Positions 24,332 to 64,000 are shown, counted from the stretch's first letter. The stretch is DNA of 64,000 nucleotides from Candidatus Nanohaloarchaea archaeon (GCA_013343275.1 CP046106.1:672001-736000), one strand, 5' to 3'. The notes: generated by a model not told the origin, from the sequence alone. Translations and numbers: made by a program.

Positions 24332-27019
24332 ATGACGAACTGGCACAGCAAAAAACTGGATGAAGTTGTACAGAAGCTCGATACCAGCACAGAGGAAGGC
24401 CTTGCTTCTGAAGAAGCAGAAAAAAGGCTTGAAGAGGAAGGAGCTAACGAGATCGAGAAGGGGGAGGAAGTTCATCCTCTTGAAATATTTCTGGGCCAGT
24501 TCAAGGACTTCCTGATCTACCTGCTTTTCTTCGCAGCCATAGTATCTATTGCAATAGGTTTCTTCCCAGGCCACGAGCCCGAATATGTAAATGCTGCGCT
24601 CATACTGATTATTGTTTTCCTGACCGGGATCTTCGGGTTCTTCCAGGATTACAAGGCCGAGAAATCTATAGAGGCCTTGAAGGAGCTTTCGAAGCCCGAT
24701 ATTACTGTTTTGAGAGATGGAAAGAAGATCGAGGTAAGTTCCTCAGACATTGTTCCCGGCGATGTAATAATACTGAATCAGGGCGACTCTATACCTGCGG
24801 ACGCACGTCTGGTTGAGTCAGAGAGTCTTTACACAGATGAGTCGGCGTTGACCGGTGAGAGCGAGAACGTCTCCAAGTCACCTGGAGAAGTTGAAGAGGA
24901 TTCAACGGTAGCTGAGCGCTCCAACATGGTTTTCAAGAATACTTCTGTTGTCAAAGGTCGTGGAAAAGCCGTGGTTGTCGAGACAGGAATGAATACAGAG
25001 GTAGGAGATATTGCAGAGCAGCTGCAGGGATCAGAAGATGAGAAAACAGATTTCCAGAAGGAAGTCGACGAGATGGGGCGGAAGATAGGTTACGGAATTG
25101 TCGCGGTAATACTGATGGTGGCCGTAGTCGAGTTCTCATTTACTTCCGCCTCTATTGTCACTATATTCCTCATGGCTGTAAGCCTGGCCGTTGCAGCAGT
25201 GCCAGTAAGTTTACCAGCTGTAGTTACTCTTACACTAGCCCTAGGCTCACGTAAAATGCTGGAAAAAGATGCCCTGGTGCGCAGACTATCAGTTGTAGAA
25301 AGTCTAGGCTCTATAGATACTATTGTAACCGACAAAACCGGTACTCTGACCGAAGACCTGATGACTGTGGAAAAACTCTACTTCGGCAGCGAAGAGTTCG
25401 AAGTCACCGGTAGCGGAACAAGTATAGACGGCGAGTTCCACAAAGACGGTCACGGCACAGATGTAGACTACCTAACCCCTCTACTCAGGTGCGGCCTGGT
25501 ATGCAACAACGCAGAGAAAGCACCTGAAGAAGAGGAGAAAGACTACTATGGAGAACCGACTGAGATAGCACTACTCGTATCAGGACTGAAAGCAGGCCTG
25601 AACCCTGATGTAGAGAGGGAAAGAGAGATTCCTTTCTCATCTGATAGGAAGAGGATGACAGTAGTAACCGGCGAAAACGAGGCCTACATGAAGGGGGCTC
25701 CGGAAACTGTCCTGGAGAGATGCGACAGGTTCTGGGACGGAGAGAAAGAAGTCGAGATGACTGACGATTTAAGACAGGAGATAAAGGATAAGAACAATGA
25801 AATGGCCTCCAGCGCTTTGAGAGTTCTCGGATTCGCAAAGAAAGATGTCCAAGATGTAGACGCGGACAGCGAAGAAGTGGAATCCAACATGGTCTTCCTC
25901 GGCCTTCAGGGTATGATCGATCCTCCACGGCAGGAAGTTGGAGAGGCCGTTCAGGACTGTAGAGAGGCAGGCATCCATGTTACCATGGCTACCGGTGATC
26001 GCGCGGAGACTGCACAGGCTATCGGAGAAGAGATAGGATTTAACGCAGACAGAGTGGTAACAGGTCAGGAGATAGAGGAGATGAGCGATGAGGAACTCCA
26101 GGAAGAAGTGAAGGAGACCGAGATATTCGCACGGGTTGAACCCCGACACAAGGTAATGATACTCGAAGCGCTAGAAGATAATGGCCGGAAAGTCGCAATG
26201 ACCGGAGATGGAGTAAATGACGCACCGGCACTGAAGAAATCCTCTGTAGGAATCGCAATGGGTAAGAGAGGAACCGATGTCGCCAAGCAATCATCCGACA
26301 TGGTTTTACAGGACGACAACTTTGTAACTATACGAGATGCTATCGCAGAGGGTCGCGGAATATTCGATAACATCAGAAAGTTCGTGAACTACCTGCTCTC
26401 AGCTAACGCAGGAGAAGTGCTGACAGTTTTCTTTGGAATACTGCTAGGAGCAATGTTCTTCCCTTCACTATTCCAGAACACCACCGAGGCCGTTATAATG
26501 ACACCTATCATGCTTATATGGTTCAACTTTGTTACTGATGGCCTTCCAGCTCTTGCTATAGGCTCTGACGATAAGTCAGAAGGTATAATGAACCGAAAGC
26601 CTAGAGGTACTGATGAACCAGTTATCAACAAAAGAATGGTAGCCTCTATGGTAGGGATAGGTATAATCATGGCAGCCACAGGCCTTACACTGTTCTTCTC
26701 CAGAATTGAGGCCGGATACAGCCTGGCAGGAGCGCAGACTATGCTCTTCACATTCTTCGTAATGATCGAGCTTGTGAGAATTCAGACTATCAGACAGCGC
26801 TACGAGCAGTCCTTCCTCTCCAACAGATGGCTGGTTGCTGCTATCGGATCATCTATCCTGCTACAGCTGATGGTAATCTACACTCCTCTGCACAAGTACT
26901 TCGAAGTTACACCGCTCGGAGTTCCTGAGTGGGCTGCAATTGGCGGAGCAGTTACCGCCTTCGTAGTCTTCACCCTAGGCATGATCAATCTGTACGACCG
27001 GGTCTTCCCCGAAGAGTAA
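24332..27019 (+). CDS. P2A-type (Ca2+-like) P-type ATPase
   Basis: TGES, DKTGTLT, KGAPE, DPPR, TGDGVNDAPAL, TDGLPA. Confidence 0.95.
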   Translation: MTNWHSKKLDEVVQKLDTSTEEGLASEEAEKRLEEEGANEIEKGEEVHPLEIFLGQFKDFLIYLLFFAAIVSIAIGFFPGHEPEYVNAALILIIVFLTGIFGFFQDYKAEKSIEALKELSKPDITVLRDGKKIEVSSSDIVPGDVIILNQGDSIPADARLVESESLYTDESALTGESENVSKSPGEVEEDSTVAERSNMVFKNTSVVKGRGKAVVVETGMNTEVGDIAEQLQGSEDEKTDFQKEVDEMGRKIGYGIVAVILMVAVVEFSFTSASIVTIFLMAVSLAVAAVPVSLPAVVTLTLALGSRKMLEKDALVRRLSVVESLGSIDTIVTDKTGTLTEDLMTVEKLYFGSEEFEVTGSGTSIDGEFHKDGHGTDVDYLTPLLRCGLVCNNAEKAPEEEEKDYYGEPTEIALLVSGLKAGLNPDVEREREIPFSSDRKRMTVVTGENEAYMKGAPETVLERCDRFWDGEKEVEMTDDLRQEIKDKNNEMASSALRVLGFAKKDVQDVDADSEEVESNMVFLGLQGMIDPPRQEVGEAVQDCREAGIHVTMATGDRAETAQAIGEEIGFNADRVVTGQEIEEMSDEELQEEVKETEIFARVEPRHKVMILEALEDNGRKVAMTGDGVNDAPALKKSSVGIAMGKRGTDVAKQSSDMVLQDDNFVTIRDAIAEGRGIFDNIRKFVNYLLSANAGEVLTVFFGILLGAMFFPSLFQNTTEAVIMTPIMLIWFNFVTDGLPALAIGSDDKSEGIMNRKPRGTDEPVINKRMVASMVGIGIIMAATGLTLFFSRIEAGYSLAGAQTMLFTFFVMIELVRIQTIRQRYEQSFLSNRWLVAAIGSSILLQLMVIYTPLHKYFEVTPLGVPEWAAIGGAVTAFVVFTLGMINLYDRVFPEE

Positions 27020-33753: not shown

Positions 33754-34242
33754 CTATTCGTCTTGCTGATACGCTGCCGACTCGAATGCAGCCCAGCCAT
33801 TAGCCATAGAATCAAGTATCGAAGTAAACGAACGCGCCGGCTTCACAACCTTTCGACGGCCCTGCTTGCCCTCACGCTGGCCACGATACTCCAGGTATTC
33901 ATACTGTATAACACCAATCCTTCTCAACTTAGGCAGAATATTGTTCTTCAAGTTTGAAAGGCCTTTCTCATGACCCCATTCGCCGAAATTATTCAACTTC
34001 TCGGAGTCTATCTCTCCTTCATCCTTTAACTCGCGCAGAAATATCTTTGCGTACTTATTCCTCTTCGGAGACTGCTCCTGAGGGAAAAACAGGTCAACGA
34101 TCTTCTCCCAGTTCCATGCACGATCAGACTTCCTGTACTTCTGACTGTCGCGCGGAATAGCGATCGAGTTCTTAGTAACTATAGTAGTAGATTTACGGGC
34201 CTCTTCATCTACAAAAGGGTGCTCCTCATCATTCTCCGACAT
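33754..34242 (-). CDS. Winged-helix DNA-binding protein of unknown function
   Basis: IFLRELK...LSNLKNNILPKLRRIGVIQY...RKVV wHTH-like pattern; basic C-terminal half. Confidence 0.7.
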   Translation of the reverse strand: MSENDEEHPFVDEEARKSTTIVTKNSIAIPRDSQKYRKSDRAWNWEKIVDLFFPQEQSPKRNKYAKIFLRELKDEGEIDSEKLNNFGEWGHEKGLSNLKNNILPKLRRIGVIQYEYLEYRGQREGKQGRRKVVKPARSFTSILDSMANGWAAFESAAYQQDE

Positions 34243-34252
34243 AACAGGTGTT

Positions 34253-34269
34253 TAACAAAGGAGGTATAT
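34253..34269. promoter_or_regulatory. Putative operator between the TATA and the start of the wHTH gene
   Basis: TAACAAAGGAGGTATA is identical (16/16) to the reverse complement of 41804-41819. Confidence 0.6.
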
Positions 34270-34315
34270 CAAAGAACCGGAAAGTGATAAAGCAGGACAG
34301 AACAACTAATTATAC

Positions 34316-41132: not shown

Positions 41133-41202
41133 CATACATTTTCACTTCCCCTCTATATTTCTCCCTCTCAGACCTCGATAATACTCACAACAAAGGCCCG
41201 AT

Positions 41203-41256
41203 TGTTCAAAATTATCGAACACCATACCACACAGCCGTGTTAATTTATAGCGAACA
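41203..41256. repeat. Two TGTTM-N9-GAACA palindromes
   Basis: 41203-41221 TGTTCaaaattatcGAACA; 41238-41256 TGTTAatttatagcGAACA. Confidence 0.75.
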
Positions 41257-41296
41257 TTCAATATTTTTTAATAGGTTTTGAGACAACTTATGAGTT

Positions 41297-41596
41297 ATGA
41301 CACAACCCTACGAGAGTTCAGACAGCATGAACACTCTCACAGAACAGGCCTATGAGCATATAGAAGAGGCGTTAGACGACCAGATAGACTACTGGGAAGA
41401 TCAGCAGGCAGCTGTTGCACTAGGCCAGTTCCTGGAAGGAGATCACGAAGGCGCCGAAGAACTCGAAAGAATAGAAGGTGAGATTTTCATGGGAGAGAGC
41501 CTGAAAACCATGTTAGAGGCCTCTGTAGGAGAACAAATTAATACCGAAAACGCCGTCCAGATGGTACAAGGATACCTTCAGGAGAACACTTACTGA
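41297..41596 (+). CDS. Acidic hypothetical protein
   Basis: 99-aa acidic helical ORF. Confidence 0.7.
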   Translation: MTQPYESSDSMNTLTEQAYEHIEEALDDQIDYWEDQQAAVALGQFLEGDHEGAEELERIEGEIFMGESLKTMLEASVGEQINTENAVQMVQGYLQENTY

Positions 41597-41637
41597 GTGT
41601 GCAAAAAGACCAAACACCCATTGATTTCAGGCCCATT

Positions 41638-41832
41638 CCAGAAAACCCTCATAATAAAGAAGGTATATCGCAACTTAGGCCGCATGTGTTTTCTGGCATC
41701 TTCTTGGTGCTTTAGCTTGGGGTCGCGCCATAGATCAGCCATATAATAAAGAAGGTATATTTTCACCTTGCTGAATGACCAGGTCCAATTCACTGGTCTC
41801 TATTATACCTCCTTTGTTATGAGCATTTCTAG
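41638..41832. repeat. Three copies (two direct, one inverted) of ATAAYAAAGRAGGTATA between convergent genes
   Basis: 41648-41667 (+), 41743-41760 (+), 41804-41823 (-). Confidence 0.8.
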
Positions 41833-41903
41833 AATATTGCCAGAAAATCAGGAAAGTTCGGCCGGTCTTCATACTCATTGAGAAGAAAATATGGAGAAAA
41901 AGT

Positions 41904-42281
41904 TTATTCTCTGAGGCCTTCAAGTCGTTCACTCCAGTACTCGAAGGAGTTTTCCGCTGCCTGACGGCCTAGATCCCTGTTGCTCCACCTCTCCTTCAGG
42001 TATCCGCTTAGTGCAGCACCCACAGCTACAGCTGCGAACTCTTCTGGGCCTCCTCCAGACATGTAGGAGAATGTGCCTCCGCCTGCTGCTGCACCGGCTG
42101 TCGCCCCATTCAGATCATCGCGATCAGGAGATAGGTAGTCGCTGATAGTGTAGTCTCCTGTCTCAGCAGCGATCAAATCCGCAAATTCGCTATTGCCCAA
42201 GGCTCTAGCTCTTTCCTCCATTATTGGAGCAATTTCCTCGTTAATTTCTATGTACGCTTCTTCTGATTCCATTTTCACCAC
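41904..42281 (-). CDS. Hypothetical protein with glycine-zipper-like hydrophobic hairpin
   Basis: GATAGAAAGGG...AAVAVGAALSGY; GAGGTGGTG RBS. Confidence 0.7.
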   Translation of the reverse strand: MVKMESEEAYIEINEEIAPIMEERARALGNSEFADLIAAETGDYTISDYLSPDRDDLNGATAGAAAGGGTFSYMSGGGPEEFAAVAVGAALSGYLKERWSNRDLGRQAAENSFEYWSERLEGLRE

Positions 42282-42333
42282 CTCAAATAATAGTTGTTAC
42301 CCAATAGATAAAAATTTACTGGTTATAACCCTA

Positions 42334-42543
42334 TTAGGCCTTTTCTGTGTGTTCATTTAGCAATTGAAGCACAATATCTCTGTTATTCTCTGTATAAAGA
42401 ATATTCGCAGTGGCGTCTTCTGATTCAGTAACCGATATTCCTAGGCCTGTATTATCGAATACCTCCTTTAGCCTGGAGTAGAGGCCTGTTTCTCCGTGTA
42501 GAATAAACTTGCTTCCATCGTCCTGTATTTTGTAAACTCTCAT
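42334..42543 (-). CDS. Small hypothetical protein (start uncertain: 42543 or 42600)
   Basis: Open frame; MRVYKIQDDG start; the upstream extension overlaps a palindromic site. Confidence 0.5.
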   Translation of the reverse strand: MRVYKIQDDGSKFILHGETGLYSRLKEVFDNTGLGISVTESEDATANILYTENNRDIVLQLLNEHTEKA

Positions 42544-42580
42544 AACGTATTTTTCGAGGCCATCAGTCAAAAAGAATGGG

Positions 42581-42700
42581 TGTTCGCATAGTTTGAACAC
42601 TCAACAACCATGAATTAACTCTTCAGTACAAACAACAGCTTTTAAAAGACATTGAATGTTCGTCTTTCTTTAACAGTGTATTGTTCACAGAAATCGAACA
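42581..42700. repeat. Three TGTTC-N9-KAACA palindromes
   Basis: 42581-42599, 42657-42675, 42682-42700. Confidence 0.75.
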
Positions 42701-42778
42701 CCCTGAAACGAGATGTGAGTAGAACAGGGCCTCTGAAGGAGGAAAAATTCTTCAGTACCTAGCCGAATACTGTAAGGT

Positions 42779-43423
42779 ATGAGCAACGGCCTGGTAGTTG
42801 AGGAGAATCCTGATGCAGGTCATGGCCTTCTGGTAGTGCCTGGTATCAGTAGTGGGCCTTTCGGCAGTCCTTTCGATGAAGTAGTGGATGAGATGAGTGA
42901 ATACTGCAGTGTTGTGAGGGTTGACGCATGGGATGATGCAAGAGACCTGGAGGATATGACACTGAGAGATCTACATGAGATAGTTGAAGGCGCCGTGGAG
43001 AGATTGAGAGATCTGGGCTGCGAAGGGATACATGTGCTGGGCAAGTCCTTCGGAGGCCAGCTTGCATTAACCTATCCAGAGAATGTGAGTTTTGATTCAA
43101 TGGTTCTGTGGGCTCCAGCAGTAGGCCTTGGTGAGAACAATGTGGAAAAGTGGAGATCTACTGCTCTTAGGCAGGCCTCTACAGCTACAGATATCTCCAT
43201 CGACATATCAGAGCTTGAAGGCCTTGACGTAGAGACTCTTCTGATACATGGAGAGAACGATCAGGTAGTTGAAGTAGAGAACTCAAGAAGGATAGCCGAT
43301 CAGTTGCCGGATGGCGATGTGAGAGTTATCGAAGATACCGGTCACTCCTTTGAAGGTCACGAAGGAGAGGTCGCAGAAATTACGGTAGATTTTCTCAGTC
43401 AAGCAACTTCATCAGATCGTTAA
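42779..43423 (+). CDS. Alpha/beta hydrolase
   Basis: GKSFGG nucleophile elbow, IHGENDQVV, TGHSF. Confidence 0.9.
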   Translation: MSNGLVVEENPDAGHGLLVVPGISSGPFGSPFDEVVDEMSEYCSVVRVDAWDDARDLEDMTLRDLHEIVEGAVERLRDLGCEGIHVLGKSFGGQLALTYPENVSFDSMVLWAPAVGLGENNVEKWRSTALRQASTATDISIDISELEGLDVETLLIHGENDQVVEVENSRRIADQLPDGDVRVIEDTGHSFEGHEGEVAEITVDFLSQATSSDR

Positions 43424-43664
43424 GTGCGTGGGCTACATCCTGGCCTCGTGATGTGAGTTCGATATACTTTTTCCTGCCTTTTTTCCGGGTCTCAATCAGG
43501 CCTATTTCCTCAAGCTTCTGTATTATCCTTACAGCATGGGAGTAAGTGCAGTCAATGTTGGAGGACAAGGCAGATGCATAGTTTTCTGCGGAGGGATCAG
43601 CCAGCCTCACCATCATCTTGGCGGGCTTGGTGTGCAGGAAGAACTCCTGTTCGCTTTCATCCAT
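43395..43664 (-). CDS. MarR-like winged-helix regulator
   Basis: YASALS..IDCTYSHAVRIIQKLEEIGLI...KGRKKYIELTSRG. Confidence 0.9.
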   Translation of the reverse strand: MDESEQEFFLHTKPAKMMVRLADPSAENYASALSSNIDCTYSHAVRIIQKLEEIGLIETRKKGRKKYIELTSRGQDVAHALNDLMKLLD

Positions 43665-52633: not shown

Positions 52634-52784
52634 GCCTCGATGGCTCAGCCTGGCTAGAGCGGTCCCCTCGTACGCCTGCCAATGCCCAGAGCGGCACGCA
52701 TCAGACCATGCTCAGCATGGCCTACAATCAAACTTGACAGGCACAGAAAGGGACAGGTCCCGGGTTCAAATCCCGGTCGGGGCT
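52634..52784 (+). tRNA. tRNA-Thr(CGU) with 76-nt intron at 37/38 (52673-52748)
   Basis: Acceptor GCCTCGA/TCGGGGC, U73; D-arm GCTC/GAGC; anticodon stem GTCCC/GGGAC with CT-CGT-A|A; T-arm CCGGG-TTCAAAT-CCCGG. Confidence 0.93.
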
Positions 52785-63617: not shown

Positions 63618-64000
63618 CTAAAGGTAGAACTTCTCCTCTACCATCTCTTCCAGCTGTGAACGGATTTCCTCTGGAAGATCAACGCTGATCTGTCTTGTAC
63701 GGCCGTAACGGCCTTTACTGATTACTTTTGCATTTATCACACCGAGCATATCGAGCTCCGAGATAAGTCCAGAAACCCTTCTCTGCGTGAGTTCTGAAAC
63801 ATCTACGTCCTCACACAGCTCCTTGTACTCGCTGTATACATCCCCCGTAGCGATTTCGTCCTCGTCCTCAGTCATCTGAAGAATAGTGTAGAGAACCAGC
63901 TTCGACTGCTTAGGCTGAGAACGAACAGTCTCAACCATTCTATCGCGCTCAATCTTGTCCTGAGCACGATCAACATGCTTCTTGTAGATCTTGTCATCCT
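63618..64000 (-). CDS. cdc6: Orc1/Cdc6 initiator, C-terminal wHTH (truncated by window)
   Basis: TGDVY..Y..LC...LTQRRVSGLISELDMLGVI...SKGRYGRTR; cdc6-DP1-DP2 gene order. Confidence 0.95.
   Translation of the reverse strand, partial: DDKIYKKHVDRAQDKIERDRMVETVRSQPKQSKLVLYTILQMTEDEDEIATGDVYSEYKELCEDVDVSELTQRRVSGLISELDMLGVINAKVISKGRYGRTRQISVDLPEEIRSQLEEMVEEKFYL

Follow-up and report, generated by a model that had tools for sequence, protein, structure and literature searches.

Winged-helix repressors of the PadR/LmrR, MarR and ArsR types, together with Phr of Pyrococcus, are built from a winged-helix core and a long C-terminal helix, and those that are autoregulated act through an operator lying over their own core promoter, from the TATA box to the start. 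Orc1/Cdc6 origins and the Sulfolobus oriC3 origin hold intergenic repeats that include an inverted pair, and the protein linked to oriC3, WhiP, is Cdt1-like and contains two winged helices. Clustered repeats are also found at centromeres with winged-helix or RHH binders (TubR/tubC, AspA of pNOB8, SegB), where the binder regulates its own gene through the same repeat. A further winged-helix protein to be considered here is the transcription factor TFE-alpha (TFIIE-alpha), which touches promoter DNA. To our knowledge, gene regulation and chromosome biology are almost entirely uncharted in the Nanohaloarchaea, tiny symbionts that can be grown only in co-culture.

The window, that is the whole stretch of DNA analysed here, comprises 64,000 nucleotides of the single-contig genome of a Candidatus Nanohaloarchaea archaeon (G000:C1:672001-736000; 915,886 bp, 46.9% G+C). 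It contains the gene of a winged-helix-type protein, p162, and four copies of a motif of 16-19 bp, one in the p162 promoter (site D) and three clustered in a gap between two convergent genes (sites A, B and C). The features needed in the following are:

33754..34242, minus strand: p162, a lineage-specific protein of 162 aa, winged-helix-type, the proposed binder of the motif
34251..34272, minus strand: site D, in the p162 promoter; the plus strand reads TAACAAAGGAGGTATA at 34253-68, the gene strand reads TTGATATACCTCCTTTGTTAAA
41648..41668, minus strand (forward strand of the motif): site A; the plus strand reads CTCATAATAAAGAAGGTATA at 41648-67
41669..41742, no strand: A-B spacer, 73 nt, of fixed length and conserved; G+C 0.48 (mean of 18 genomes)
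41743..41764, minus strand (forward strand of the motif): site B, the best-conserved copy; the plus strand reads ATAATAAAGAAGGTATAT at 41743-60
41765..41803, no strand: B-C spacer (58-60 nt spacing between the sites); G+C 0.52 (mean of 18 genomes)
41804..41823, plus strand: site C, inverted relative to A and B; the minus strand reads CTCATAACAAAGGAGGTATA at 41804-23

Each of the described systems shares part of this arrangement. Like the autoregulated repressors, p162 is modelled with a winged-helix core and a long C-terminal helix, with PadR/LmrR in the top Foldseek rows and Phr (2p4w) also among its matches, and it would have an operator over its own core promoter, although the operator set is here very small. 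It departs from them in lacking membership in any Pfam or NCBIfam family, in carrying an N-terminal extension of about 40 residues and in a motif that is asymmetric in most copies; moreover, the other three sites control no visible protein gene and form a non-coding module of fixed spacing. The cluster resembles the Orc1/Cdc6 and oriC3 origins in its intergenic repeats with an inverted pair, and the oriC3/WhiP type in particular in that a winged-helix protein is linked to it whose promoter holds a copy of the repeat. In contrast to such origins, however, the cluster has no ORB or AT-rich stretch, p162 lies 7 kb away rather than adjacent, the genome has an ORB origin of its own upstream of orc1, and p162, unlike WhiP, is modelled as one winged helix. 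With the centromeres it shares clustered repeats and, as proposed here, autoregulation of the binder through the repeat (TubR is a weak fold match of p162), but only three sites are present, two of them separated by a long conserved spacer, and no partner NTPase gene lies beside p162 or the cluster.

The motif and its distribution

Read on its own forward strand, which is the p162 gene strand, the motif is ATATACCTYCTTTRTTA, also written ATATACCTCCTTTGTTA, and all four copies carry ATATAC. Direct matching bore out the positions of these copies, which had been proposed in an earlier note on this DNA. When the 17-mer was searched with up to 3 mismatches, five matches were found in the window against 0.38 expected, a number reached in none of 100 shuffles; the fifth of these, at 26571 with 3 mismatches, resembles a chance match. 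With the 18-mer and up to 3 mismatches, sites A, B, C and D are the sole matches in the entire genome of 915,886 bp. The motif is therefore not scattered as an ordinary RBS- or promoter-like word but confined to four sites genome-wide, and such a word is ruled out by this total together with the absence of a Shine-Dalgarno signal upstream of the ORFs of this genome (profile of 766 ORFs). Nor is the motif a Shine-Dalgarno word by virtue of its central CCTCC, since this pentamer varies at the promoter copy (CAATC, CCATC, CTATC, CAACC). In a metagenome scan with the 17-mer, the geometry of the cluster was found in 3 of 119 loci among the matches listed, the remainder being mostly chance matches.

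Within the cluster, a repeat search returned A and B as a direct repeat of 29 nt (83%) and B and C as an inverted repeat of 17 nt (88%). The outer copies had been described as an imperfect inverted repeat of about 30 bp, and by eye A and C indeed extend over about 33 nt with a one-base indel. The genes on either side of the gap, ORFs 41297-41596 (plus) and 41904-42281 (minus), face each other as had been noted.

The p162 protein is encoded in 25 of 41 related genomes, with 23 of 24 in the same family and one of 16 outside it, at identities of 73-95%, and a profile search returned the same 25 genomes. The exact motif occurs in 20 genomes of the family, among them this one, and is absent from all 16 that belong to other families, and matches of the single motif with one mismatch are at control level outside the family. 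The sole genome outside the family that encodes p162 carries the motif too, upstream of this gene. To judge from these genomes, motif and protein share the same narrow phyletic range, and the co-conservation check advised in the earlier note, once run, placed both in the same family apart from this one outside genome. The distance between p162 and the cluster is 7.4 kb here and 2-24 kb in relatives, the two being linked wherever they share one contig. Taken together, sequence comparison indicates a genuine link, conserved and specific, that joins the gene to the motif and the cluster. Among the papers listed on nanohaloarchaeal promoters, replication origins and non-coding RNA, no title or abstract opening deals with the motif or p162.

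The p162 protein and its promoter

Searches with p162 returned no Pfam family (E up to 0.01) and no NCBIfam family (E up to 0.1); an alignment of 17 members gave no family match at E below 0.04, and the sole match of a profile search against the PDB had an E of 0.45. In the source records its homologues are named only 'hypothetical protein' of Nanohaloarchaea. An exhaustive search recovered seven full-length distant relatives (24-37% identity), which are also without Pfam matches, and the ESM Atlas holds similar 'hypothetical' clusters in other archaeal phyla. An origin from a mobile element was discarded, there being no relatives in plasmid or phage collections. The gene is monocistronic, and its neighbours vary between genomes.

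The AlphaFold model of p162 has a mean pLDDT of 66 and a pTM of 0.56. Its winged-helix core spans residues 43-161 and consists of three helices, a two-strand wing and a long C-terminal helix, with a pLDDT of 74-85 over residues 50-120, while the N-terminal stretch of about 40 residues is uncertain in the model. The best Foldseek rows were PadR/LmrR (E 6e-3, probability 1.0), TFIIE-alpha in third place, an ArsR-type regulator, RTP and TubR. In VIA-align the first rows were TFIIE-alpha (8byq_W, Z 8.8) and TFE-alpha of P. furiosus (6xjf_A, Z 8.7, 102 of 102 residues aligned), at an rmsd of about 5 Å and with Z scores near the background or noise ceiling of 7-8 stated for the tool; the next rows were the Fur DNA-binding domain and Rpc82/RPC62. 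All of the top fold matches are winged helices, and the assignment as a winged helix-turn-helix protein, originally a guess, thus gains backing from a model of moderate confidence and from weak fold matches. The prediction of a homodimer reached a score of 0.38 (mark 0.42), which makes the dimer tentative.

A replacement of TFE by p162 was considered because canonical TFE-alpha was not found by PF02002 or TIGR00373 in 41 nanohaloarchaeal genomes (this genome and 40 relatives); the motif, moreover, sits where TFE would touch promoter DNA. The best PF02002 matches in this genome are TrmB- and ArsR-like proteins, and TIGR00373 gave nothing here and at most 20.7 bits in the 40 relatives. In contrast to TFE-alpha, p162 contains no cysteine and hence no zinc ribbon, gives no signal with PF02002 or TIGR00373 and is restricted to one family, and the sister families lack p162 as well as a detectable TFE. 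The idea that p162 replaces TFE was dropped on the grounds of these sister families and of the missing zinc ribbon, and a TFE role for p162 is a long shot.

The upstream profile of the 766 ORFs of this genome contains a TATA-type signal at -31 to -24 and an A-rich stretch at -36 to -33. As this signal is not accompanied by a Shine-Dalgarno signal, the mRNAs are predicted to be mostly leaderless. On the p162 gene strand, the TTTGATATA of site D spans -31 to -23, which is the TATA position of a leaderless promoter; together with the conserved sequence that follows it to about -9, this p162 TATA box makes up site D. The earlier note had put this copy between a TATA-like element and the ATG; the position holds, but the TATA position is filled by TTTGATATA of the motif itself.

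Each of the 20 homologues examined has the motif somewhere from -29 to +3 relative to the p162 start codon. ATATAC starts at -27 from the ATG in this genome and at -25 to -29 in 17 of the 20, whatever the upstream neighbour. The remaining three are informative. In two genera (L009 and L014) the motif has moved 14 nt downstream, reaching about -13, and the TATA box at -31 to -23 is a different element, CTTTATCAA. In one genus (L011) the motif lies in the opposite orientation across the ATG of the p162 homologue (L011:1483-1497). The parts conserved among the promoter copies are ATAYAC and CTTTGTTAAG. Since the motif stays on the core promoter in these three of 20 without serving as the TATA box, it appears to keep to the core promoter without having to be its TATA box, which is the behaviour of a putative operator and not of a mere promoter element. 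The claim that gene and motif belong together is upheld by the constant presence of the motif at the p162 core promoter and by the shared phyletic range. The pilin-like gene divergent from p162, 73 bp away, has a TATA box of its own, TGATAAAG at 34284-34292 (plus), 28 nt upstream of its ATG (34316) and separate from the motif.

The three-copy module and its surroundings

A pattern search in 31 genomes of the family identified the cluster as a second motif locus with copies 92 and 58-60 nt apart. The full layout of A (minus), B (minus) and C (plus) is kept in 18 of 24 loci, where the start-to-start distances are 92 nt from A to B and 58-60 nt from B to C; of the other six loci, three lie at contig ends and three have a degenerate copy A. 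Sites A, B and C belong to a non-coding module that is conserved over about 270 bp; its majority fractions over 18 genomes are highest at the sites (B 0.89, C 0.85, A 0.76), lower in the spacers (A-B 0.69, B-C 0.56) and lowest in the flanks (0.28-0.50).

The conservation of the A-B spacer is about that of coding sequence, yet in the alignments neither the frames nor the starts of translation are preserved. The same lack of conserved starts and frames in relatives led to the rejection of the small ORFs, of 18-51 codons, that the gap contains downstream of A and B. No consensus RNA structure was predicted for the A-B spacer, whose consensus folding energy is 0 on both strands, and no word of at least 14 nt recurs elsewhere in the genome, which also removes an antisense target for it. 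If transcribed, the spacer would accordingly be an odd RNA, with neither a predicted structure nor a complementary target elsewhere. RNAalifold returned the helix between repeats B and C alone, on both strands, with one of 13 pairs changed on both sides. Rfam gave nothing at the module even at E up to 10, and tRNA, Rfam families, SRP RNA and RNase P RNA were all rejected for this locus, the latter two RNAs being encoded elsewhere in the genome. Away from the module, Rfam reports a tRNA match of 151 nt and 44.5 bits at 52634-52784 (plus), presumably intron-bearing; ARAGORN found no tRNA in the window.

The individual copies vary in a telling way. The central pentamer of site A is flipped in 6 of 18 genomes, four of these six having the palindrome ACAAAGGTCCTTTAT, and in 6 of 18 genomes site A is without the TATAC form while CTTTGT is kept. 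In one genome the same T-to-A change (TAAAC) is present in both B and C. The palindrome and flip at site A and the parallel change in B and C are typical of protein-binding sites. On its forward strand, site B is preceded by a conserved BRE-like GAA(A), with the class consensus GAA.atATACCTtCtTTATTaTAt, and C and A each have a short T-run behind them (GTTTTTCG and GGGTTTTC, respectively), close to where a transcript would be expected to begin.

To the left and to the right of the module lies a palindrome, GAGTGTTC-N9-GAACACTC, of the GTGTTC-N9-GAACAC type and here called P. The P palindromes of this locus and the neighbouring gene p69 are as follows:

41202-22, 41237-57 and 41314-34, no strand: three P palindromes around the start of the 99-aa ORF
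41597..41617, no strand: P palindrome at a distance of 31 nt from site A; the 99-aa ORF ends directly before it
42334..42543, minus strand: p69, a conserved 69-aa protein; an 88-aa ORF restarted at an internal Met
42580-600 and 42681-701, no strand: two P palindromes upstream of the p69 gene

With up to 1 mismatch, GTGTTC-N9-GAACAC occurs five times genome-wide, four of them within the 1.5 kb of window 41202-42701, and with up to 2 mismatches 6 of 46 genome matches fall in this stretch. The loci of relatives contain 2-7 P palindromes per about 3 kb, with one 45-79 nt to the left of A in 16 of 18 loci and one 33-76 nt to the right of C in 13 of 18; they too typically follow directly on the stop codon of a flanking gene or precede p69. 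A gene for an 89-aa winged-helix protein at 43395-43664 encodes a candidate binder of the P palindromes.

Most homologues of p69 are 67-69 aa long and start at the internal Met. The protein is modelled as a small beta-beta-alpha-beta-beta-alpha domain (pLDDT 88), for which a fold search returned no clear match. In relatives the gene to the left of the module is usually p69: within a separate set of 25 p69 loci, drawn partly from the same genomes as the module loci, the module lies at most 1.5 kb downstream of p69 in 14, with A first in 14 of 14. In this genome and in G001, p69 is on the C side of the module, and elsewhere on the A side. The 99- and 125-aa ORFs beside the module of this genome have no homologues in the loci of relatives. 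The end of the left neighbour lies 45-100 nt before A. Of the 16 loci read, 11 have a convergent right neighbour; in the remainder it is co-directional at a distance of 230 nt or more. A block of about 27 nt, CGAACATTCAAT.T.TTTTAA.AG, is common to 41247-41276 (plus), in the promoter region of the 99-aa ORF, and 42664-42637 (minus), in that of the p69 side, and consists of a P half-site and a TATA; in two relatives the form GTGTTAATT.TAG.CGAACAT lies upstream of p69. The shared block and its form in these relatives suggest that a rearrangement moved p69 in this genus.

Possible roles of the motif and the cluster

The explanation we favour, while giving it slightly less than an even chance, is that the motif is the predicted binding site of p162, an autoregulated winged-helix protein with an operator set of four sites, and that the cluster among these controls outward transcripts. 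The likeliest owner of the motif would be p162. Bound to site D, it would block TBP, TFB and RNA polymerase and so repress its own gene, and the copies A, B and C may be read as high-affinity sites for the same protein. The cluster would control two or three short non-coding or antisense units that fire outward and end at the flanking palindromes and T-runs. Control of transcription units is proposed because the copies carry ATATAC, because B and C stand back to back with their TATA ends about 44 bp apart and because B has the BRE-like GAA. That the cluster copies may be the promoters of small outward transcripts is the preferred reading of them, held with low confidence: it has against it that the ATATAC of the motif differs from the TTTAAA-type TATA of the tRNA promoters of this genome, and that downstream of A or C nothing is conserved, codable or foldable but the palindromes.

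The earlier note had seen in the cluster an origin, partition or terminus site, and this part of its proposal was not supported. The orc1/cdc6 gene is located at genome 735618-736823 (window 63618-64000 and beyond), about 22-23 kb from the cluster, and upstream of it, beside the PolD genes, lies a gap of 840 bp (G000:C1:736824-737663) that contains an AT-rich stretch and, around it, three copies of an ORB-like element with a G-string, two of them direct (CACCCCCTGATTTC[GA]TGTGGAG) and the third inverted (TTCCACTCGAAATAGAGGGGTGTG). This gap, not the cluster, is the canonical candidate for the ORB-type origin of the genome. The repeats of the cluster contain no ORB or mini-ORB word, its spacers with 48-52% G+C against 47% in the genome offer no AT-rich unwinding stretch, and no initiator gene is adjacent, orc1/cdc6 being about 22 kb and p162 7.4 kb away. 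Neither a ParA/SegA/TubZ-type NTPase nor an initiator gene was found among the 63 window proteins scanned. The skew analysis, which had been recommended in the earlier note, gave no feature at the cluster in either the skew or the gene-strand profile, but these profiles are flat everywhere. A classical origin at the cluster is thus unlikely, while a DNA-level architectural role may still be considered. In its broader form this reading has p162 nucleate a complex on the module and the palindrome field that would be centromere-like or act as a secondary origin or fork barrier, with site D serving for autoregulation only, and we regard it as rather improbable. It would account for the rigid spacing and the orientation-independent conservation of a non-coding module, for the dense and locally unique field of GTGTTC-N9-GAACAC, for the constant linkage of p162 to the cluster and for the position 23 kb from oriC among the genes of PolB, RPA, RadA, primase, PolD and Orc1, and it can point to RTP and TubR among the weak fold matches of p162; opposed to it, beside the ORB origin at orc1, the composition of the cluster and the missing partner gene, is the monocistronic p162 gene with its variable neighbours. 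The more specific version, in which p162, module and palindromes would form an origin-proximal, family-specific organisation or segregation site served by a DPANN-wide winged-helix family and without a ParA-type partner, we consider equally doubtful.

A different regulator could also own the motif and simply control p162. This other factor, be it another regulator or an alternative TBP/TFB pair, would serve four special promoters including that of p162, a reading that agrees with the motif being itself the TATA box in 17 of 20 p162 homologues, with ATATAC in all four copies and with the BRE-like GAA at B. It is nevertheless unlikely in view of the three of 20 p162 promoters in which the motif is shifted or inverted and a separate TATA is then used, of the narrow phyletic range common to motif and p162 and of the site A copies that have lost TATAC and kept CTTTGT. 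Another role, as a bidirectional terminator or insulator for the convergent genes, would have B (or A) pair with C in a hairpin of 13-16 bp followed by a T-run, possibly with a protein roadblock. The B:C helix predicted on both strands, the T-runs after C and A, the closeness of the left and the frequent convergence of the right neighbour and the palindromes directly after stop codons would all fit. A terminator, however, need not keep 16 identical bases across about 20 genera or match a distant promoter; the helix is nearly without covariation, the conserved 73-nt A-B spacer is left unexplained, and archaeal termination mainly requires oligo-T, not hairpins, so that we consider this role improbable. 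We give very little credence to the module being the gene of a structured non-coding RNA or an invertible DNA switch. For the former one may cite the conserved 266-nt intergenic sRNA STRG.4577.1 reported from a Nanohaloarchaeon (PMC7002113), which the module of about 270 nt resembles in length; the empty Rfam search, the spacer consensus energy of 0 and the location of SRP and RNase P RNA elsewhere speak against it. The switch is suggested by p69 lying on the C side in this genome and G001 and on the A side elsewhere, but the A-first order in all 14 further p69 loci with the module indicates one old rearrangement instead.

What is described here is a sharply defined pair, a strongly conserved uncharacterised winged-helix protein and its candidate targets, exactly four sites per genome. 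The non-coding module that holds three of these sites matches a protein gene in its degree of conservation, and the wider p162 family appears in other DPANN-type archaea. At stake is whether these sites constitute a minimal autoregulated regulon that drives small RNAs or an architectural site acting at the DNA level. Even if ordinary autoregulation were all that is involved, this would still be a clean first candidate assignment of an operator to its regulator in this lineage.
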